Positions 23,363 through 36,454 of a stretch of 64,000 nt of DNA are shown one piece after another. Made by a program: the position numbers and the translations under genes. Position 1 is the first letter of the stretch, and every line of letters begins with the position of its first letter. The stretch comes from Actinomycetota bacterium (GTDB lineage: Bacteria > Actinomycetota > Thermoleophilia > Gaiellales > Gaiellaceae), in assembly GCA_005885125.1 (NCBI GenBank), contig VAXU01000026.1:1532-65531 (forward strand), in the 5' to 3' direction. Below the pieces are notes generated by a model. The model did no database searches. It was not told the DNA's origin and worked only from the letters and a program-made list of their open reading frames with translations.

Positions 23363-23385
23363 TTTGCCGAGCTACCGTCGAGGGA

Positions 23386-23613
23386 ATGGACGAGGCCCGC
23401 GCGGTGATCGAACGGCTCGACCGGATCGACGTGCTCGAGCGGGACGGCGCTCCCCCCGCGGTGCTGCTCGAGGAGCTGCGCGGACTCGTCCACGATGCGG
23501 AAGCCTGGGCCCGGCTCGAAGCCGACGAACGCGCCGCCGCTGCGCTCGAACGCTGCGATTTGGCTCTCGCGCAACCCGTGGCGTTGCGTCCGCCGATTCG
23601 GACGGCGGGCTGA
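23386..23613 (+). CDS. Small hypothetical protein (75 aa)
   Basis: Helical, non-Arg-rich translation with GC3-rich codons, divergent from the M14 gene. No family recognised. Confidence 0.4.
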   Translation: MDEARAVIERLDRIDVLERDGAPPAVLLEELRGLVHDAEAWARLEADERAAAALERCDLALAQPVALRPPIRTAG

Positions 23614-23705
23614 CCCAGGAGCGGGTTGAGACGGAGGCGCGGGCGAAGCCCACACCTCCTCTGAATCGACATCGCAAGCGATGTCTACGGCGTAGAGTCG
23701 CGCGC

Positions 23706-24649
23706 GTGGGGATCGCGCACTGGGACGACGTTCAGAAACGGCGAAACGAACGAGGCGAGATGGCCGCCACGTGGTCGAATCTCGGCGGCGCCGCAGGGAG
23801 TTACCGCTGCGGCGTCCAGCGCATCGAGCTCCAGCCGGGCGAGATGCCGACGCCGGCGCACGTCCACGGCGAGGCGGAGGAGATCTTCTACGTCCTCGGC
23901 GGCTCGGGTCTCACGTGGCTGGACGAGAAGGCCTACGAGATCCGCGCGGGCGATTGCATCGTTTACAAGAACTTCCACGAAGCGCACACGATTCGCGCGG
24001 GCGACGACGGACTCGACGTGCTCGCGTTCGGCGCGCGCGAGTACACGCCTGTCGGAGAGCTCCCCCGTGGCGGCAGCATGTGGACGGTCACCGGCTGGGC
24101 GGAAGTCCACACGGACAGCCATCCTTGGGACCGTGAGCCGGCGCTCGAGTGGCCCGAGCCCGAGCCCGAGCGCGTGCCGACGATCGTGAACGTTGCCGAC
24201 GTCGAGCCCGAAGTGCGCGGCGGGAGGCGCAGGCGCCACCTCGGGAGCGCGGCGGGCTCCCGTTGGACGGGTCTTGCCACATCGAGTGCGAGCCGGGCAT
24301 CCTCTCGGGACCACCGCACGCGCACTCGGCGGAGGAGGAGATCTTCGTCGTCCTCGGCGGCGACGGAACGCTCGAGCTGACGCCGTCACCGCGCGGTGCG
24401 GCGGAGTTCGACGATCGACCGGAGACACAGCCGGTCCGCCGCGGCACGGTCGTCGCGAGCCCGCCGGGCACCGGCGTCGCCCATGCGTTCCGCGCCGGCG
24501 ACACCACGCTGACCCTCATCGCGTGGGGAACACGCGAGCCGAACGACATCTGCTGGTACCCGCGCTCGAAGAAGCTCTTCTGGCGCGGCGTCGGCGTGAT
24601 CGGTCGCGTAGACATGCTCGACTACTGGGACGGCGAGGAGCTGGAGTGA
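23706..24649 (+). pseudogene. Bicupin protein, interrupted by a -1 frameshift near 24257-24263
   Basis: GTG 23706 (VGIAHWDDV...). The first cupin (HVHGEAEEIFYVLGGSG) is in the frame of track ORF 23364. The second cupin (HAHSAEEEIFVVLGGDG) is in the frame of track ORF 24149. Colinear with the intact downstream paralog. Confidence 0.7.
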
Positions 24650-25569
24650 TCGCGCACTGGGACGACGTCCAGGCCGTCCGCCTGGAGAAGGGTCACATGT
24701 GCGGGACGTGGACGGATCTCGGCGAAGCGGCAGGCTCGCAGCACATCGGGGTGAACCGCATCCAGATCGATCCGGGACGCTGGTCCACTCCCGTGCACCG
24801 CGAGCTCGACGCGGAGGAGATCTTCTTCATGCTCGCCGGCTCCGGGCTGTCGTGGCACGACGGCAAGACCTACGAGATCGGGCCAGGCGACTGCATCGTC
24901 TATCGCGTCGCCGAAGAGCACACATTGCGTGCAGGCGACGAGGGCCTCGACGTGCTCGCGTTCGGGGAGCGGATCATCGCCAGGTACACGCACTTTCCGC
25001 GCACGAACGTGATCGGCAACTACCCCGGCGTGACAGTCGACGTCTCGCAGGGCCCCCGCGCATGGGACCGCGAGGTCGAGGCGGGCGAGCCCGAGCTGCC
25101 CGAGGCGTCGCCGCGGCCCGCGAACATCGTCAATGTTGACGATGTCGCAGGCGAGTACGACGGCCGTTGGAAGCGGCTTGCTGCGGAGGCCGGCTCGGTG
25201 CGCACAGGCCTCAACCTCGCGAGCCAGGGACCCGGCGAGGACGGCGCCGACCCGCATTGTCACTCCGCGGACGAGGAGATCTTCGTCGTCCTCGCGGGCT
25301 CGGGACGGATCGAGCTCTGGCCTGCGCCGCTCCGAGCCGCGCACGGTGCCGAGCGCGAGGAGCACCCGATCCACGCGGGCCATGTGATCTCGCGGCCGCC
25401 GGGGACCGGAATCGGGCATTACCTCGTGGCGGGGGACGAGGGAATGACGTATCTCGCTTACGGCACGCGCCGACCGGACGACGTTTGCTACTACCCGCGC
25501 GCGAACCAGATCTACTTCCGCGGCCTCGGGCTACTCACGGAACTGCCTCCGGTCGCGCCCGAGGAGTAG
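24646..25569 (+). CDS. Bicupin protein (intact paralog)
   Basis: GTG 24646 overlaps the upstream stop (GTGA). VIAHWDDV..., two cupin motifs (ELDAEEIFFMLAGSG; HCHSADEEIFVVLAGSG). Confidence 0.8.
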   Translation: MIAHWDDVQAVRLEKGHMCGTWTDLGEAAGSQHIGVNRIQIDPGRWSTPVHRELDAEEIFFMLAGSGLSWHDGKTYEIGPGDCIVYRVAEEHTLRAGDEGLDVLAFGERIIARYTHFPRTNVIGNYPGVTVDVSQGPRAWDREVEAGEPELPEASPRPANIVNVDDVAGEYDGRWKRLAAEAGSVRTGLNLASQGPGEDGADPHCHSADEEIFVVLAGSGRIELWPAPLRAAHGAEREEHPIHAGHVISRPPGTGIGHYLVAGDEGMTYLAYGTRRPDDVCYYPRANQIYFRGLGLLTELPPVAPEE

Positions 25570-25682: not shown

Positions 25683-26642
25683 ATGGGGAGAGCGTTCCGT
25701 GCCTTCAGGTCTCGTCGCGTTCGAATCGCCGTCAACGCCATCGTTGTCGCCGGCGCGCTGACCGCTGCTGCGCTCGCCACGCACCATTTCCTCCACGCGG
25801 GCTGGCCGCTCTCGAACGCCGACCCGCTGCTCGTGTCCGCCGCGGGCGTGCTCTTCATCGCCGCCTACGCCTTCAAGGCGTGGGGCTGGCAGCGGCTGTT
25901 CGCGCCGCACGAGCGACCGCAGGCGCTGACGCTCGCCGCCGCTGGTGGTGCTGCGTCGGTCGGCGGAGTCGCGCTGCCCGGACGGTTCGACGAGGCGATC
26001 CGGATCGCGGTCGTCCGCCGGCTTCCCGGCAAGACCGCAGGTTTCGGCGCGATCTGCCTGACGATCGTGGTCGTCGGGCTCCTGGACTCCGCGGCGCTGA
26101 CGCCTGCGGCGTCCGTCGCCGCAGCCGCGTCGGAGAAGGGCAGCGTGCAGATCGGGTTCGCACTCGTCGCCGCCGCCGGGCTCGCGGCAGCGCTGCTCGT
26201 CTTCTTCTTGCCGCGCCTCGCCCGCGTCGGGTGGGTCGCACGGTTCAAGCTCGGGCGCTGGTTGCAGGAGCATTGCGCTTGCCGCCGCAGCGCCTGGCAG
26301 GCCTGGATGCTGATCAGCGTCTCGTGGGCGCTGCGTGCACTGGCGGTGTTCGTGCTGTTGCAGGCGCTCGCCGTCGGCGCGTCGTTCCCGCTCGCCCTCG
26401 CATTCCTGTGTGCGTCAGCTGCATCTGCAGCGCTTCCGATCGCACCGGTCGGCGCGGCGACGCAGGCCGGTGCGGGCGCTGCGATCCTGATCGTCAGCGA
26501 CGTTCCGAAGGCGGAAGCCGTTGCGTTCGCCGTCGCGGCACAGGGATTGATCATCCTCGCCGGCGCCGTGATCTGCGCGGTCGCCGGCCTGTGGCATCTC
26601 GCCGCGCGCCTCCGGCGAACGGCCGCCGTCGCCGCCTACTAA
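25683..26642 (+). CDS. Flippase-like / UPF0104 (LPG-synthase TM region-like) membrane protein
   Basis: 319 aa, polytopic. AYAFKAWGWQRLF and GRFDEAIRIAV motifs resemble UPF0104. Confidence 0.65.
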   Translation: MGRAFRAFRSRRVRIAVNAIVVAGALTAAALATHHFLHAGWPLSNADPLLVSAAGVLFIAAYAFKAWGWQRLFAPHERPQALTLAAAGGAASVGGVALPGRFDEAIRIAVVRRLPGKTAGFGAICLTIVVVGLLDSAALTPAASVAAAASEKGSVQIGFALVAAAGLAAALLVFFLPRLARVGWVARFKLGRWLQEHCACRRSAWQAWMLISVSWALRALAVFVLLQALAVGASFPLALAFLCASAASAALPIAPVGAATQAGAGAAILIVSDVPKAEAVAFAVAAQGLIILAGAVICAVAGLWHLAARLRRTAAVAAY

Positions 26643-28135: not shown

Positions 28136-28287
28136 CCCAAGACCGTACCCGGCCGTCCGAGGCCCACGCCATCATCAGAACCCCTGGAGGAAACAGCTAT
28201 CCTGGCCCGAAAGACCGCCCGATGGGGCTGTCACGCCTACTTCCGCGTCCGAACACACGCGGATCTTCGTCCGGTAAGGGGAACCAC

Positions 28288-29058
28288 GTGAAGAGAGTGA
28301 TCGCCTTCGCCAACCAGAAGGGCGGCGTGGCGAAGACGACGACGACCCTGAATCTCGCGGTCGCCCTCAAGGAGCAGGGCTTCAACGTCCTGACGATCGA
28401 CCTCGACCCACAGGGCAATCTGACCATGAGCCAGGGATGGAACCCCGACGAGATCGAGCGGTCGATGTTCGACGTGCTCGTCCACCAGCTCCCGATCCAG
28501 GAGATCATCCGGCCGGCGGAGATCGACGTGGCCGTCTCCTCGATCGACCTCGCCGGCGCCGAGCTCGCGCTGTCCTCGATGATCGGCCGCGAGCGCGCGC
28601 TCGAGAAGGCGCTGGTTTCGGTCAAGGCCACGTACGACTACATCCTCATCGACACGCCGCCGTCGCTCGGCCTGCTGACGATCAACGCGCTGGTCGCCTC
28701 CGACGGCGTGATCGTCCCCGTCCAGTGCGAGTACCTCTCGCTGCGCGGTCTCGTCCAGCTGGAGAACACGCTCTCGATGATCCGCGAGAACCTGAACCCC
28801 GACGTGGCGATCGACGGGATCCTGCCGACGATGTACGACAAGCGGCTGCTGCACTCGAAGGAGGCCGTCGACATCCTGAAGGAGAACTTCGGCGACCTCG
28901 TCTACAAGACGCTGATCCGCAAGACCATCCGCTACGCGGAGGCGCCGGTGAAGGGGCAGTCGGTGCTCTCGTACGATCCGCGCGGCGAGGCGGCCGAGCT
29001 CTATCGCGATCTCGCCAAGGAGGTGCTCAATGGCGCGAAAGCGCGCGAGCATGCGTGA
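28288..29058 (+). CDS. parA: ParA/Soj-family (PldP-like) P-loop ATPase
   Basis: GTG 28288 preceded by AAGGGGA. Deviant Walker [16 protein letters not shown], plus IDLDPQGN and [12 protein letters not shown]. No parB adjacent. The 3' end overlaps ftsZ by 29 nt. Confidence 0.9.
29017..29023 (+). promoter_or_regulatory. Shine-Dalgarno AAGGAGG for ftsZ, embedded in the parA-like coding region
   Basis: Perfect AAGGAGG lies 6 nt upstream of ATG 29030. Confidence 0.6.
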
Positions 29059-30397
29059 GGGCCCGCTCGCGGAGCTCTTCAAGGCGACCGAGGCGGCACA
29101 GCGGCAGCAGGAGCAGACCCAGCAGGGCGCGCCGCCGGAAGAGCCGCACGAGTCGACGGTCGAGCACGTCCCGACGTGGGAGGACGAGGTCGAGGCTCCG
29201 GCGCCGCCGAAGCACGAGCCGGTGCCCGAACCGGGGCCACGCCGGCCCGAGCCGCAGGCGAAACCACCCGCATCCGCCCCGACGCCGGCGCCGCCGACGG
29301 TGCCCGAGCCGCCGGTCACCCGCTACGTCGAGACGATCCCGGAGCCCGCACCCCGACTGCACCGCGTGCCAACCGGAACAGTCGGTTCCTACCTGGCCAA
29401 GATCCAGGTCGTCGGCGTCGGCGGCGCAGGCCTGAACGCCGTCAACCGGATGATCGACGCCGGCATCAACCAGGTGGAGTTCGTGGCCGTCAACACCGAC
29501 CTGCAGCAGCTGCAGATGTCGGACGCCGAGACGAAGATCCACATCGGGCGCGAGTTGACGAAGGGATTGGGCTCGGGCGCGGAGCCGACGATCGGGCGCC
29601 AGGCCGCAGAGGAGGCGTACGACCAGATCAAGCAGGCGCTCCGCGGCGCGGACATGGTCTTCGTCACCGCAGGCGAGGGCGGCGGCACGGGGACGGGCGG
29701 CGCGCCGATCGTGGCGAAGATCGCGCGCGAGCTGGGGGCGCTGACGGTAGGGATCGTGACGCTGCCGTTCAACTTCGAAGGGACGAAGCGGCGCTCGCAG
29801 GCGCTGGTCGGCATCGACGAGCTGCGCGCCGCGTGCGACACGACGATCGTGATCCCGAACGAGCGGCTACTCGAGGTCCTCGACAGGACGACGTCGATGC
29901 TGGATGCGTTCAAGATCGCCGACGACGTGCTGCGCCAGGGTGTGCAGGGGATCTGCGACCTGATCACGCTCCCTGGGCTGATCAATCTGGACTTCGCGGA
30001 CGTCCGCACGATCATGGAGGGCAGCGGCACCGCCCTGATGGGGATCGGCTTCTCGTCGGGCGGCGAGAATCGTGCGCGCGAGGCCGCGGAGCGCGCGCTG
30101 CGCTCGCCGCTGATCGACATGGAGCTGCGCGGCGCGAAGGGGATCCTGCTGTCGATCGCCGGCGGCGACGACCTCGGGATGCTCGAGGTGAACGAGGCCG
30201 CCGAGGTGATCCGGCAGACCGCGACGGAGGACACGCAGATCATCTTCGGCGCCACGATCGACGAGCGGCTGACGGGCCAGGTGTGGGTGACCGTGGTCGC
30301 GACCGGCTTCGGAGCGCCGCAGCGCTCCCGCAGCTTCGTCGGCGCGCTTACTGCGCCGGAGGACGAGCTCGAACCGCCGTCGTTCCTGCGCAGCTGA
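29030..30397 (+). CDS. ftsZ: Cell division protein FtsZ with long N-terminal extension
   Basis: [14 protein letters not shown], tubulin signature [11 protein letters not shown]7-loop NLDFADV, C-terminal peptide [11 protein letters not shown]. About 120 aa of Pro/Glu-rich sequence precede the GTPase core. Confidence 0.92.
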
Positions 30398-33899: not shown

Positions 33900-34901
33900 T
33901 CAAGCGAGCGGTACGAGCACCGTGGCGCAGAACGCCGCGGCGATGCACGCGGCCGCACCGGAGGCCGCGAGCACGAACACGCGCTTGCGCGTCCCGAGCA
34001 TGAACACACCCGCACTCCCGCACGCGATTCCCGCGGCGGTCTCGACGGCGTGGAAGGCAATGCCGGTCGCGAGCGCCTGTTGGAGCCCGACGCCGTGAGC
34101 CTGCAACGCCATCGCGACTGCGCCGCTCGTGATGCCCAGGTTCCCAGACAGTGGGATTAGCCCCGCGAGATCGAGCGCCGGCAGGATGATCAGCGCCGCC
34201 AGCACCGGACTGGGGACGCCGAGCCCCGCCGCGACGGCGGTCGCACCGAGGAAGCGTGCACCGGTCGAAACGGCGATCCAGCCCGCGACCCGCGCGCCTG
34301 CCGCCGGCGTGCGACCGAGCTCCCGGACCGCGTCGAGCAGGTGCGCGACGTGATTGCGCGGGGTGCGATTCCGCGTTGCGAGCGCAACGACCGCGGTCGC
34401 GACGCCGACGCAGCCGACGATGAACACGAACCGGAGCGGGACGGCTCCGACCGCGGCGGCACTGGCGACGATGACCCCGAAGACGATCAGGCGCATCGCG
34501 GCGATCACCGCGAAGACGCCGCCCATCCGCCACGCGCGATCCTCCCCCTCGAGCCGGCGCGCGAAGAGCGTCAATCGCACCGCCTCGCCGATCCGGATCG
34601 GCGCGAGGCTGTTCACCAGCGACCCGACCCCGTACCGCGCCGCCGCATCGGACCGTGTGAGCCTTCCACCGCAGAGCGCAAGCGCAGACCGCCAGACAGA
34701 CGAGCTCGCAAGCAACGAGCCGACGAAACAGAACGCGGCCAGCCACAGCCAAATCGGGCGTGCGTCCTCGAGGCCTCCGAGTGCGAAGCGCACCTGCCGT
34801 CCCGCGATTCCCACCACGACGGCGGCGAGGGCGAGAAACACACAGGCCGCGGCGAGGCTGCGACGAGATACCAGGGAGCGGAGGTCTAGTTGGAGGAGCA
34901 C
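33900..34901 (-). CDS. Flippase-like / UPF0104 membrane protein (second copy)
   Basis: 333 aa, polytopic. VWRSALALCGGRL and PIRIGEAVRL motifs. Same architecture as 25683..26642. Confidence 0.65.
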   Translation of the reverse strand: MLLQLDLRSLVSRRSLAAACVFLALAAVVVGIAGRQVRFALGGLEDARPIWLWLAAFCFVGSLLASSSVWRSALALCGGRLTRSDAAARYGVGSLVNSLAPIRIGEAVRLTLFARRLEGEDRAWRMGGVFAVIAAMRLIVFGVIVASAAAVGAVPLRFVFIVGCVGVATAVVALATRNRTPRNHVAHLLDAVRELGRTPAAGARVAGWIAVSTGARFLGATAVAAGLGVPSPVLAALIILPALDLAGLIPLSGNLGITSGAVAMALQAHGVGLQQALATGIAFHAVETAAGIACGSAGVFMLGTRKRVFVLAASGAAACIAAAFCATVLVPLA

Positions 34902-34963: not shown

Positions 34964-36454
34964 ATGCGAGGCGCAATCGCTGCCGGCCACCCGCTTACCG
35001 CCGAGGCGGGAGCAAGGGTGCTCCGCGAGGGTGGGAACGCGGTCGACGCGGCCGTGGGCGCGGCCCTCGTCTCCTGGGTAGCTGAGAGTACCCTGACCGG
35101 CCCCGGGGCGGGCGGCTTCATGCTCGTCCACCGGGCGCGCGACCGCTCCACGCGGGTGTTGGACTTCTTCGTCGCCATGCCCGGTCTGGGCCTTCGGGGC
35201 CCGGCCCTGCGGGAGATGGAGGAGGTGGACGTCGACTTTTCCGGTGGGTCGACCCAGATGTGCCGGATCGGCGCCGCGTCGTGCGCCGTCCCGGGGGCGG
35301 CGCTCGGCCTCGAGGAGGCGCACGGCGCGTACGGGACGCTGCCGTGGGCAGAGCTCTTCACGCCGGCGATCGAGCTCGCGCGCGCCGGCGTCGAGCTGAC
35401 GCGAGGGCAGGCGTACCTGCACGCGATCCTCGATCTGATCCTGCGCCATACGCCCGAGAGCCGTGCGGTCTACGAGCTCGACGGCGAGCGGCTCGTCGCG
35501 GGCGACACGCTCGTTCAAAAGGATCTTGCGCGGACACTCGAGCTGCTTGCCGAGCGGGGCGCGAAGGAGCTGTACAGCGGCGAGCTCGCGCGCGCGCTCG
35601 TCGACCACGTCCGTGCGAGCGACGGTTCCATCACTCGGCGTGACCTGAAGGAGTACCGGGTCGTCCGCCGCCGTCCGGTGGCGACCGAGTTCCGCGGTCA
35701 CGAGTACCTGTCGAACCCGCCGCCGAGCGCCGGCGGGATCCTGATCGCATTCGGACTCGGGCTTCTCGACGACGCCGGCGGGCCGGGCAGCGCCGAGGCG
35801 ATCGACGCGCTGGCCCGCGTGATGCGCGAGCAGACGCATGCGCGGGAAGAGAACTTCGACCGCGCGCTGCGGCGGGGCGGCCTCGCGAAGCTGCTCGAGG
35901 AGCGTGCCGTCGTCGTTCGCGGCACGACCCACATCTCCGTCGTCGACGAGCGCGGGAATGCAGTTGCGCTGACGGCGTCCACCGGAGCAGGCTCGGGGAT
36001 CGTCGTCCCGGGCACCGGCATCCATCTGAACAACATGCTCGGCGAGTTCGACCTGCCGAAGCCGCCGCGCGCGGGTGAACGGCTGTCGTCGGGGATGAGC
36101 CCGTCGCTCGTGCTGCACGATGGCCGCCCGCGACTCGTCGTCGGGAGCGCCGGCTCGCTGCGCCTTCGCGGTGCGGTGATGCAGATCGTCGTCAATGTCG
36201 TGCAGCACGGGCTCGGCGTGGGTGACGCGATCGGGCGGCCGCGCGTGCATCTCGAGGGCGAGCATCTTCATTGCGAGGGCGGGCACGATCCCGCAGAGCT
36301 CGACAAGCTGGAGGCGATGGGGTGGGACGTGACGCGCTGGCGCCGGCAGAACCTCTACTTCGGCGGCGCTGCAGCGGTTGAGAGGACGGATGAGGGGACG
36401 CTCGCCGCGGCCGGCGATCCGCGGCGCGGCGGTGCGGGCGTGGTCGTGCGGTGA
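34964..36454 (+). CDS. ggt: Gamma-glutamyltransferase
   Basis: GHPLTAEAGARVLREGGNAVDAAV, autoprocessing/catalytic GTTHISVVD, SSGMSPS. Confidence 0.88.
   Translation: MRGAIAAGHPLTAEAGARVLREGGNAVDAAVGAALVSWVAESTLTGPGAGGFMLVHRARDRSTRVLDFFVAMPGLGLRGPALREMEEVDVDFSGGSTQMCRIGAASCAVPGAALGLEEAHGAYGTLPWAELFTPAIELARAGVELTRGQAYLHAILDLILRHTPESRAVYELDGERLVAGDTLVQKDLARTLELLAERGAKELYSGELARALVDHVRASDGSITRRDLKEYRVVRRRPVATEFRGHEYLSNPPPSAGGILIAFGLGLLDDAGGPGSAEAIDALARVMREQTHAREENFDRALRRGGLAKLLEERAVVVRGTTHISVVDERGNAVALTASTGAGSGIVVPGTGIHLNNMLGEFDLPKPPRAGERLSSGMSPSLVLHDGRPRLVVGSAGSLRLRGAVMQIVVNVVQHGLGVGDAIGRPRVHLEGEHLHCEGGHDPAELDKLEAMGWDVTRWRRQNLYFGGAAAVERTDEGTLAAAGDPRRGGAGVVVR

Follow-up and report, generated by a model that had tools for sequence, protein, structure and literature searches.

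A conserved N-terminal peptide on FtsZ, encoded in overlap with a Soj-like ParA gene, may link ParA to the division ring in Gaiellales

The 64-kb window considered here (the whole stretch of DNA that was analysed, 64,000 nucleotides) contains two overlapping genes, parA and ftsZ, the features of which are collected in Table 1. The genes that flank the pair are transporters, and a dcw-cluster context for ftsZ is ruled out. We considered, and rejected, an independent gene for a small adaptor lying between these two, and a scan for promoters and terminators found nothing. The downstream gene encodes a bona fide FtsZ, with a GTPase core that begins at residue 121. It scores 419.8 bits against the TIGR00065 ftsZ model (equivalog cut-off, 295.2 bits), with residues 121–433 matched, and is matched in Pfam by Tubulin (PF00091; residues 124–284, 168.5 bits) and by FtsZ_C (PF12327; residues 333–427, 106.6 bits). 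The nucleotide-binding loop, GGGTGTG, occupies residues 217–223, and the T7 loop, NLDFADV, residues 319–325. A search with the full-length protein is saturated with relatives at 78–97% identity. The C-terminal peptide, the usual docking site for FtsZ partners, is well kept: among 80 sequences P450 and F452 never vary, and conservation of L453 is 99%.

Table 1. Features of the parA-ftsZ locus (positions in the window)
Feature	Position	Strand	Length	Basis or remark
parA, Soj-like deviant Walker A ATPase	28222-29058	+	278 aa, from ATG 28222	Pfam, PDB relatives, synteny
ParA N-terminal motif MGL[SAT]RLLPRPxxR, then variable linker	28222-28260	+		Conservation
Shine-Dalgarno site AAGGAGG of ftsZ	29017-29023	+		Inside the parA coding sequence; 6 nt before ATG
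parA/ftsZ overlap	29030-29058	+	29 nt	parA stop TGA inside ftsZ codons 9-10; same geometry in 80/80 loci
ftsZ	29030-30397	+	455 aa	ORF; TIGR00065 and Pfam matches
FtsZ motif 1 (residues 1-26), candidate ParA-interaction/ATPase-activating peptide	29030-29107	+		Conservation in 81 sequences
Acidic Pro/Glu/Ala-rich tether (residues 27-120), predicted disordered; contains motifs 2 and 3	29108-29389	+		Composition, AlphaFold2
FtsZ motif 2 (residues 38-50), E-P-x-E-x-T-V-E-H-[VA]-P-x-[WF]	29141-29179	+		Conservation, 80 sequences
FtsZ motif 3 (residues 98-112), R-(Y)-[LIV]-E-P-[LM]-P-E-P-[AP]-P-R-L-H-R	29321-29365	+		Conservation
FtsZ globular core (residues 121-427; GTPase and C-terminal domain)	29390-30310	+		TIGR00065, Pfam Tubulin, Pfam FtsZ_C
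Short Arg-rich C-terminal linker (residues 428-446), C-terminal peptide L-E-P-P-S-F-L (447-453) and stop codon	30311-30397	+		

Public gene calls begin parA at GTG 28288 and give it 256 aa. In Pfam, its product matches AAA_31 (202 bits) and also CbiA; the MipZ model matches the N-terminal half only, with 49.7 bits. Its best relatives in the PDB are Myxococcus xanthus ParA (8RAY, 201 bits), the ParA-like protein of M. smegmatis (4PFS/5IF9, about 199 bits), the structures of which have the same Walker A sequence, KGGVAKTT, and T. thermophilus Soj. The segment KGGVAKT and residues K13, K18, D40, D42, N46 and R188 are invariant in 77/77 ParA sequences. R188 we take to be the equivalent of R189, the DNA-binding arginine of B. 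subtilis Soj, and the protein looks both active and able to bind DNA. Its N-terminus, which reads MGLSRLLPRPNTR here, has no Pfam family. The motif at this end starts 23–77 residues before the Walker A strand, and a regular expression finds it in frame in 70 of 77 loci; variant forms occur in most of the remaining seven. Third codon positions are the least conserved within it.

The pairing of the two genes is strict. The first-pass annotation, made from the DNA letters and open reading frames of this window, had placed an ATPase next to ftsZ; that neighbour is a Soj-type ParA, and its gene lies directly upstream, overlapping ftsZ, in all 80 loci, with ParA identities of 74–91%. Codon 9 of ftsZ is CGT in 79/81. 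The other neighbours of the pair are not conserved among loci, but the parA-ftsZ coupling itself is invariant across the order Gaiellales, and among the Gaiellales compared we found no lineage with the N-terminal FtsZ peptide alone or the adjoining ParA alone. Covariation between peptide and ParA is not a feasible test, since each is nearly invariant and what variants there are follow clades. A tblastn search with a ParB sequence as query gave no match to a ParB-like gene, either in the window or to a distance of about 6 kb in any of the 80 loci, and the sampled sequence, roughly 1.1 Mb in all, is without a GLGRGL-type motif. Because parA lies directly upstream and overlaps it, ftsZ holds the place of parB in a parAB operon. 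In the literature searched, on FtsZ of Thermoleophilia and Gaiella and on FtsZ N-terminal extensions with ParA, we found no description of such an arrangement, nor of the tether motifs or the ParA N-terminal motif discussed below.

The start of ftsZ at position 29030 had been proposed on the strength of its Shine-Dalgarno site, and comparison bears this out: the site is essentially invariant in 81/81 orthologous loci, with G at −11, −10 and −8 in every one. The first-pass annotation had also named the circumstance that would undo its reading—translation that in fact starts near residues 110–120—and in the 35 codons preceding the core, in 66 loci, there is no conserved internal start. Some start codon occurs within those 35 codons in 43 of the 66; the positions are scattered, and an SD-like site occurs in only 4. 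Were the extension an annotation artefact, the real start would lie near the core, and the conservation upstream would come from the 3′ end of parA or from an RNA element. The first 29 nt of ftsZ do overlap parA, so that codons 1–10 are doubly constrained. Codons 11–26, however, lie beyond the overlap, and they change synonymously while the amino acids stay the same: the invariant residues G11, P12, L13, A14, L16, T20, A22 and A23 are each encoded by 3–6 different codons, and across motif 1 as a whole the invariant residues use 2–6 synonymous codons (81 sequences). Since the codons vary and the residues do not, outside the parA overlap, selection acts on the protein sequence of the FtsZ N-terminus. 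The reading frame, moreover, is open through tethers of 93–173 residues in all 80 genomes, and GC3 is 0.93 across the entire ORF. The synonymous variation, the invariant SD site and the lack of a conserved internal start together show that the long form is translated. An artefact is thus barely credible, and a wrong start codon was considered and rejected. By these signals in the sequence, the extension is genuine: it is translated, and strong purifying selection maintains it.

The extension has a near-invariant beginning and a variable remainder. Motif 1, which opens MAR[KRN] and closes [RK]ATEAAQ, is present in 80/80 of the species-representative Gaiellales genomes that make up our conservation sample. 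Within residues 1–24, sixteen positions never change and a further seven are conserved at 90% or above (81 sequences). Over the 80 species-level genomes, this conservation equals that of the GTP-binding loops and exceeds that of the canonical C-terminal peptide; it is far above chance. Past about residue 28, both the sequence and the length of FtsZ diverge between Gaiellales. The N-terminal residues and the P/E/A-rich stretch ahead of the core read exactly as first quoted, and the orthologue alignment gives the pattern that a built-in interaction peptide had been expected to leave: some 26 residues that hardly change, followed by a linker that drifts. The basic head of motif 1 is formed by the invariant R3 and R5 together with K/R4 (93% conserved) and R9 (97%). 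The part that follows is predicted to be helical, and its acidic residues are as well kept (E15 and E21 invariant; E10, 95%). Each locus has a single copy of the strict motif GPL[AS][EDQ]LF. AlphaFold2 places a helix at residues 12–31 with low confidence (pLDDT about 50–56) in a model of mean pLDDT 57, in which helix and disordered tether are both only weakly supported.

Where else does this peptide occur? The extension has no Pfam family. In an exhaustive profile search, the best 150 of 648 representatives all have the Gaiellales-type peptide. A word-index search yielded nothing but fragments, none longer than 91 aa. We read them as artefacts, produced from the same FtsZ by frameshift or truncation, because the tails of those on long contigs read as frame-shifted P/E-rich linker. 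Two apparent fusions of ParA to the peptide (P0241 and P0216) are frameshifted gene calls.

The whole region ahead of the core varies in the order from 93 to 173 aa, with a median of about 122. The tether, some 95 residues long here, is made up of P (27%), E (18%) and A (13%) to a large extent and has a net charge of −0.12 per residue. The first-pass annotation had supposed it to be a flexible linker, and AlphaFold2 models it as coil; for the greater part of it (segments 30–69, 71–84 and 92–121), pLDDT is below 50. Tandem Repeats Finder detects no meaningful tandem repeat in it. Two islands of conservation interrupt the drift. In motif 2, T43, V44, E45 and H46 are 93–96% conserved and P48 is 91% conserved (80 sequences); in motif 3, the figures are 96% for P104, 97% for E105, 93% for R109 and 95% for L110. 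Neither these motifs nor the one at the ParA N-terminus had been remarked on in the first-pass annotation. Conservation of all three shows that there are probably interactions beyond what a ParA-peptide model explains.

What might the peptide bind? Its helical part is amphipathic, and one suggestion is that it targets the membrane, so that FtsZ would bind there directly, as some FtsZs of Mycoplasma and Odinarchaeota do. Terminal amphipathic helices that tether FtsZ to the membrane have been reported, the hydrophobic moment of residues 12–26 is 0.47 (moderate), and Actinobacteria are not known to have FtsA. The moment, though, did not discriminate the peptide from membrane-targeting helices or from ParB helices; charge alone did, the helical segment having a net charge of 0 to −1 versus +3 to +4 for the membrane-targeting sequences compared. 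The acidic residues E10, E15 and E21 are conserved, just three large hydrophobic residues are present where such helices have a broad hydrophobic face, and the canonical C-terminal peptide, where an anchor such as SepF could bind, is retained. We consider membrane targeting very unlikely. A direct role in DNA binding, by which the basic head (MARKRAS-R) would tether FtsZ to the nucleoid or exclude it from there without ParA, is less likely again. Residues 1–9 include four basic ones, of which R3 and R5 are invariant, yet four is few for DNA binding, the invariance runs well past the head into the acidic and hydrophobic helix, and a strongly acidic tether follows.

A third candidate ligand is ParA, and here there is a pocket with which to compare. 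In M. xanthus ParA, the pocket for the ParB peptide has been mapped experimentally to V116, L150, L152, L155, L187 and L192, with an arginine site formed by Y81, E82, D110 and E117; the residues of the ParB helix are L11, R13, L15, L18 and I19, in the motif L-G-[RK]-G-L-x-x-L-[IL] (PMC12462528). In a pairwise alignment to 8RAY, the pocket equivalents in the Gaiellales ParA are L95, L129, L131, I134, M166 and L171. Each of the six is a hydrophobic residue that hardly ever varies, and the hydrophobic pocket is, as far as such an alignment can tell, intact. At the arginine site three of the four positions are kept (F/Y63, D64 and D89); the equivalent of E117 is Ala or Ser. On the side of the peptide, FtsZ L13, L16 and F17 can be placed by eye in register with ParB L15, L18 and I19, which makes three of four hydrophobic positions. 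The fourth is out of register, a Gly-Pro is inserted, and R9 lies 4 residues before the first leucine versus 2 in ParB. A regular expression for the ParB motif has no match in the window or the loci, and a profile of the peptide run against the PDB returned no ParB chain, only a chance match with E = 1.4. We do not class the peptide as a canonical ParB motif. The true partner of this ParA might instead be a ParB from a canonical parAB elsewhere in the genome; if such a ParB has the usual motif, the deviant peptide on FtsZ and the replacement of E117 would be consistent with insulation of two ParA systems from each other. The proposal in the first-pass annotation of a ParB-like peptide for interaction with ParA has therefore held in part: the basic peptide is conserved, a ParA adjoins and its pocket is preserved, but the canonical motif is missing and the PDB profile does not lead to ParB.

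Our preferred interpretation is that the FtsZ N-terminal peptide is the partner, or activating peptide, of the ParA encoded by the overlapping gene, tethered to FtsZ for positioning of the Z-ring. We give it a probability of roughly 0.45. In the definition that we draw from PMC7993993, activating peptides of ParA/MinD ATPases—those of ParB, MinE, ParG, PomX and McdB—have a positively charged N-terminus and sit, by way of an unstructured stretch, on a domain that interacts or self-assembles. A further mark of the class is a cognate ATPase gene alongside, and all of these features are found here. Members of the class bind the ATP-bound ATPase dimer and, by means of a basic residue, stimulate hydrolysis of ATP, as the FtsZ peptide would do on this reading. 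By analogy with PomX, FtsZ would carry a graft that activates ParA; binding, activation of the ATPase and the outcome for positioning are inferred from that comparison. Against this has to be set the possibility that the peptide docks some other partner (SepF, a DivIVA-like protein or a kinase) or tunes the polymerization of FtsZ, and that parA is adjacent for co-expression only. R-[KR]-R-A-S7, which is invariant, looks like a site for a basophilic kinase; an amphipathic helix with three large hydrophobics is typical of many protein-binding linear motifs; and the departure from the ParB motif, like the two further tether motifs that have no assigned partner, is readily accommodated. FtsZ N-terminal extensions, furthermore, are reported to affect polymerization in heterocyst-forming cyanobacteria (Anabaena; PMC6175996). 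Such a role leaves unexplained, however, why parA overlaps ftsZ in 80/80 loci while the other neighbours vary, and why a ParA without an adjacent ParB should keep an intact peptide-binding cleft; and AlphaFold2, in what is a poor model, did not dock the peptide on the FtsZ core. We regard another partner as possible, though on the unlikely side.

If the peptide does engage ParA, events might run as follows. ParA and FtsZ would be translated from the same mRNA, and ParA-ATP dimers would assemble on the nucleoid. The flexible acidic tether, about 95 residues long, would carry the peptide ahead of a canonical FtsZ: a basic head (R3, K/R4, R5 and R9) and then a short helix presenting L13, L16 and F17. 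R9 of FtsZ would help to trigger the hydrolysis of ATP by ParA. Filaments of FtsZ would display many peptides side by side, a multivalency that would parallel closed ParB clamps and PomX filaments, and because of this display polymerized FtsZ should be a much stronger binder and activator of ParA than monomers. The outcome would be a two-protein coupling of Z-ring position to the nucleoid. It could take either of two forms: the ring might be moved to mid-nucleoid, in the manner of PomXYZ or McdAB, or FtsZ might be kept off DNA-rich regions, in the manner of MipZ or nucleoid occlusion. A bolder version, which we think improbable, holds that parA-ftsZ is a minimal, self-contained positioning system in which the FtsZ polymer is both cargo and multivalent activator, no adaptor of the ParB, MinE or PomX kind is needed, and the N-terminus of ParA possibly acts on FtsZ in return. 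In that reciprocal arm, the MGLxRLLPRP motif of ParA, on its variable tether, could act on FtsZ, for example on its GTPase. The N-terminus of FlhG, which acts on FlhF, provides a parallel.

Among characterized systems, PomX comes closest. It comprises a short, conserved, positively charged N-terminal peptide, an unstructured Ala/Pro-rich region and a self-polymerizing domain; its filament offers many activating peptides to the nucleoid-bound, ParA-like PomZ, and PomXYZ positions the Z-ring in Myxococcus xanthus (PMC7993993). The Gaiellales FtsZ likewise consists of an N-terminal basic peptide, a tether and a self-assembling domain. It differs in that the polymerizing domain is FtsZ itself, so that a separate adaptor would not be needed; there is no sequence similarity, and activation of ParA is demonstrated for PomX but only proposed here. 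With ParB, the likeness is in a peptide that is N-terminal and predicted to be helical, with a basic residue followed by Leu-x-x-Leu-hydrophobic, and in a gene directly downstream of parA. The Gaiellales FtsZ nonetheless has no ParB/Srx domain, HTH domain or CTPase. In Caulobacter, dimers of MipZ bind DNA and act directly on FtsZ, and ParB positions MipZ. As with MipZ and MinD/MinC, we propose that an ATPase of the ParA/MinD family governs where FtsZ assembles; MipZ, however, acts on the FtsZ core, and its FtsZ has no dedicated MipZ peptide.

Nearer relatives in terms of taxonomy are PldP of Corynebacterium and Rv1708/MSMEG_3743 of mycobacteria. These Soj-like proteins have no adjacent ParB, and septum placement has been linked to them, with neither activator nor cargo yet assigned (10.1101/2025.07.02.662783; PMC10482377). 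The Gaiellales ParA, too, is Soj-like and without an adjoining ParB. We do not take this likeness to the orphan actinobacterial ParAs as orthology, since the chromosomal ParA of M. xanthus scores equally high. The genes for PldP and Rv1708/MSMEG_3743 are not known to lie beside ftsZ, nor is FtsZ of mycobacteria known to be extended at its N-terminus. A conserved, clade-specific N-terminal peptide is a trait shared with cyanobacterial and plastid FtsZ. In heterocyst-forming cyanobacteria, such a peptide is reported to be needed for normal FtsZ function (PMC6175996). It probably differs from the Gaiellales peptide in sequence, it belongs to another clade, it has no associated parA gene, and the role reported for it is in polymerization.

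An entire deep-branching order of actinobacteria, then, ties parA to ftsZ and carries an activator-like peptide on FtsZ. This points, short of proof, to direct action of ParA on FtsZ in placing the division ring of Gaiellales. Actinobacteria generally lack MinCDE and Noc/SlmA, and for this reason the question of how the phylum chooses its division site has long stood open. Should the peptide engage ParA, FtsZ would for the first time be seen as a direct ParA client, and the positioning system would be cut to two proteins. The rule 'basic N-terminal peptide, tether, assembling domain' would then reach the cytoskeletal protein itself. It would also hint at where to seek the missing partner of the orphan ParAs of actinobacteria, and would provide a concrete mechanism of Z-ring placement for one actinobacterial lineage.

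The ftsZ ORF encodes a genuine FtsZ, with a score of 419.8 bits against the NCBIfam equivalog TIGR00065 (cut-off 295.2 bits; residues 121–433 aligned). It contains the Pfam domains Tubulin (124–284) and FtsZ_C (333–427), together with the GGGTGTG and NLDFADV (T7) loops and a C-terminal docking peptide, L-E-P-P-S-F-L. Its C-terminal linker is short (~19 residues) and Arg-rich; the long, flexible, acidic tether lies on the N-terminal side, not the C-terminal. The 120 residues ahead of the core are identical to those described in the first-pass annotation.

Scanning for orthologues, with one genome per species, gave 80 loci, and the lower-taxon names in their titles are all Gaiellales, Gaiellaceae or Thermoleophilia. 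In every one, the frame is open from the same N-terminal peptide into the FtsZ core. Residues 1–26, 16 of them invariant, are conserved to the level of the GTPase core (mean top-residue fraction 0.94–0.98), and more so than the canonical C-terminal peptide, while the pre-core region spans anywhere between 93 and 173 residues (median ~122), always in frame: a conserved head on a drifting linker, as a tethered peptide had been expected to look. The Shine-Dalgarno sequence, six bases 5' of the ATG, is essentially invariant among 81 sequences, of which 77 start with ATG and four with GTG. Initiation near residue 110–120 would have left a conserved internal start, and none occurs in the 35 codons upstream of the core among the 66 loci in which the core motif was matched; 43 of these have some start codon there, at scattered positions, and only four have an SD-like site. 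Outside the overlap with parA, invariant residues are spelled by many synonymous codons (six for L13; four each for G11, P12, A14, A22 and A23), so that selection acts on the protein and not on DNA or RNA. The codon evidence and the lack of a conserved internal start exclude both a misplaced start and an effect at the RNA level. The long form is also the one called by public annotation pipelines. Proteomics aside, we take 29030 to be the established start, and the extension to be almost certainly real, translated and functionally constrained. Public collections hold many ‘small proteins’ of 40–90 aa with the FtsZ peptide at their N-terminus (e.g. P0002, P0010, P0043 and P0107), and some apparent ParA–peptide fusions (P0241 and P0216). 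Rather than standalone adaptors, these are apparently artefacts, with tails that are frame-shifted versions of the GC-rich, P/E-rich linker or genes cut by contig ends.

Features of the parA–ftsZ locus and its surroundings (window positions)
Feature	Position	Strand	Description
Tandem cupin-domain genes	23364-25569		upstream
LPG_synthase_TM-family paralogues	25683-26642; 33900-34901		membrane proteins
Conserved bases 5' of parA	28184-28215		GGAGGA-like block ~30 nt upstream; GAAA at −14 to −11
parA	28222 or 28288..29058		Soj-like ParA, directly upstream of ftsZ
ParA N-terminal motif	28222-28296		MGL[SAT]RLLPRPxxR + variable tether; in-frame in ≥70 of 77 loci
ftsZ Shine-Dalgarno	29017-29023		AAGGAGG
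ftsZ ORF	29030..30397	+	455 aa
FtsZ peptide			residues 1-26, then low-complexity Pro/Glu/Ala sequence
Tether motif 2	29141-29179		residues 38-50; E-P-x-E-x-T-V-E-H-[VA]-P-x-[WF]
Tether motif 3	29321-29365		residues 98-112; R-(Y)-[LIV]-E-P-[LM]-P-E-P-[AP]-P-R-L-H-R
FtsZ C-terminal linker	30311-30367		Arg-rich
Gamma-glutamyltranspeptidase gene	34964-36454		

After residue 28, Pro makes up 27% of the tether, Glu 18% and Ala 13%; its net charge is −0.12 per residue, and searches of it for tandem repeats and for Pfam families gave nothing. The composition is that of the low-complexity linker first claimed, but the tether is not featureless, for two islands within it (motifs 2 and 3) are conserved in the 80 orthologues. 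The AlphaFold2 model of FtsZ, poor overall (mean pLDDT 57), predicts a helix at residues 12–31 (pLDDT about 50–56) and coil (below 50) over most of residues 30–121.

The ParA encoded upstream (Pfam AAA_31, 202 bits) has ParA/Soj proteins as its closest solved structures. Its gene stops inside ftsZ codons 9–10; this 29-nt overlap, and the place immediately upstream of ftsZ, recur in all 80 loci (ParA identity 74–91%). A tblastn search found no ParB-like gene in the window or in any of the 80 loci, nor does a GLGRGL-type motif occur in the ~1.1 Mb of sequence sampled, and so ftsZ takes the position of parB in a parAB operon. The flanking genes encode transporters and unrelated enzymes, which rules out a dcw cluster. 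Other neighbours differ between genomes; the only recurrent one, in the flanks fetched, is a gamma-glutamyltranspeptidase gene (64/80 loci). Immediately beside parA–ftsZ here stand variable insertions, namely an ABC/FtsX-like pair and an MFS transporter, and two LPG_synthase_TM paralogues flank the pair of genes. The tandem cupin genes, which appear as two Cupin_2 ORFs in matching public contigs, have no link to the finding. Bases conserved across 72 loci 5' of the parA ATG may be promoter or leader elements; a sigma-70 consensus scan returned nothing.

ParA retains the signature and Walker A lysines, the catalytic D40, D42 and N46, and R188, which we take to be the equivalent of the DNA-binding R189 of Bacillus subtilis Soj. 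Its best PDB match is 8RAY, ParA of Myxococcus xanthus, in which the site for the ParB peptide was mapped in 2025 by mutagenesis and NMR (PMC12462528). Transferred by pairwise alignment, the hydrophobic pocket (V116, L150, L152, L155, L187 and L192) becomes L95, L129, L131, I134, M166 and L171, all hydrophobic and essentially invariant. In the arginine-binding cluster (Y81, E82, D110 and E117; here F/Y63, D64, D89 and A/S96), three of four residues are retained, and the invariant glutamate, E117, is replaced by A/S.

The first-pass annotation had called the FtsZ peptide basic and ParB-like. It is short, positively charged and at the extreme N-terminus, but it falls outside the canonical ParB motif, and a profile built from it retrieves no ParB chain from the PDB. 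That motif places hydrophobics at i, i+4, i+7 and i+8 and a basic residue at i+2 (L11, R13, L15, L18 and I19; PMC12462528). In the FtsZ peptide, M8-R9-E-G-P-L13-A-E-L16-F17, the residues L13, L16 and F17 fall at the positions of L15, L18 and I19, whereas R9 lies two residues further upstream than the ParB arginine and M8 is out of register. Peptide, tether and core do conform to the general rule for ParB, MinE, ParG and PomX, in which an unstructured region joins an interaction domain to a short stretch of positive charge at the extreme N-terminus (PMC7993993). The closest architectural parallel is PomX, where an activating peptide at the N-terminus is followed by an unstructured region rich in Ala and Pro and then by a filament-forming domain; here that domain is FtsZ. 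Productive activation of M. xanthus ParA requires two peptides side by side (PMC12462528). FtsZ protofilaments would offer peptides in this way, and polymerized FtsZ, not the monomer, is thus predicted to be the effective ligand.

That the peptide is an activator-like partner of ParA we hold at a probability of roughly 0.45. The serious rival is that it serves another partner, or self-regulation of FtsZ, for which there is a precedent in Anabaena (PMC6175996), with ParA merely co-expressed; this does not account for the invariant overlap with the gene of a ParA that lacks a ParB and yet keeps its peptide cleft. Membrane targeting by the helix is improbable, given the conserved E10, E15 and E21 and a net charge of 0 to −1 in the helical part, against +3 to +4 in reference sequences. 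Were the basic head to bind DNA directly, the invariant acidic and hydrophobic helix would go unexplained.

An activator-like ParA partnership might run in both directions. Conservation favours ATG 28222 (278 aa) as the probable parA start; public gene calls begin at GTG 28288 (256 aa; SD-like AAGGGGA upstream) and lose an N-terminal motif that starts 23–77 residues ahead of the Walker A strand, on a tether that is P/E-rich in its long versions. Third codon positions vary across the motif. Since both proteins carry tethered N-terminal linear motifs, their sequences hint at reciprocal regulation, and the ParA motif may in turn engage FtsZ or some other partner.

ParA-family regulators of FtsZ (MinD, MipZ and PomZ) have been described before, as have N-terminal activating peptides. 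New is an activator-like peptide built into FtsZ itself and hard-wired to an overlapping parA across the whole order Gaiellales; our literature searches found no description of this arrangement. Actinobacteria generally lack Min and nucleoid occlusion. Orphan ParAs of this phylum have been tied to septum placement with no known partner (10.1101/2025.07.02.662783; PMC10482377), and the finding bears on how the Z-ring is placed in Actinobacteria.
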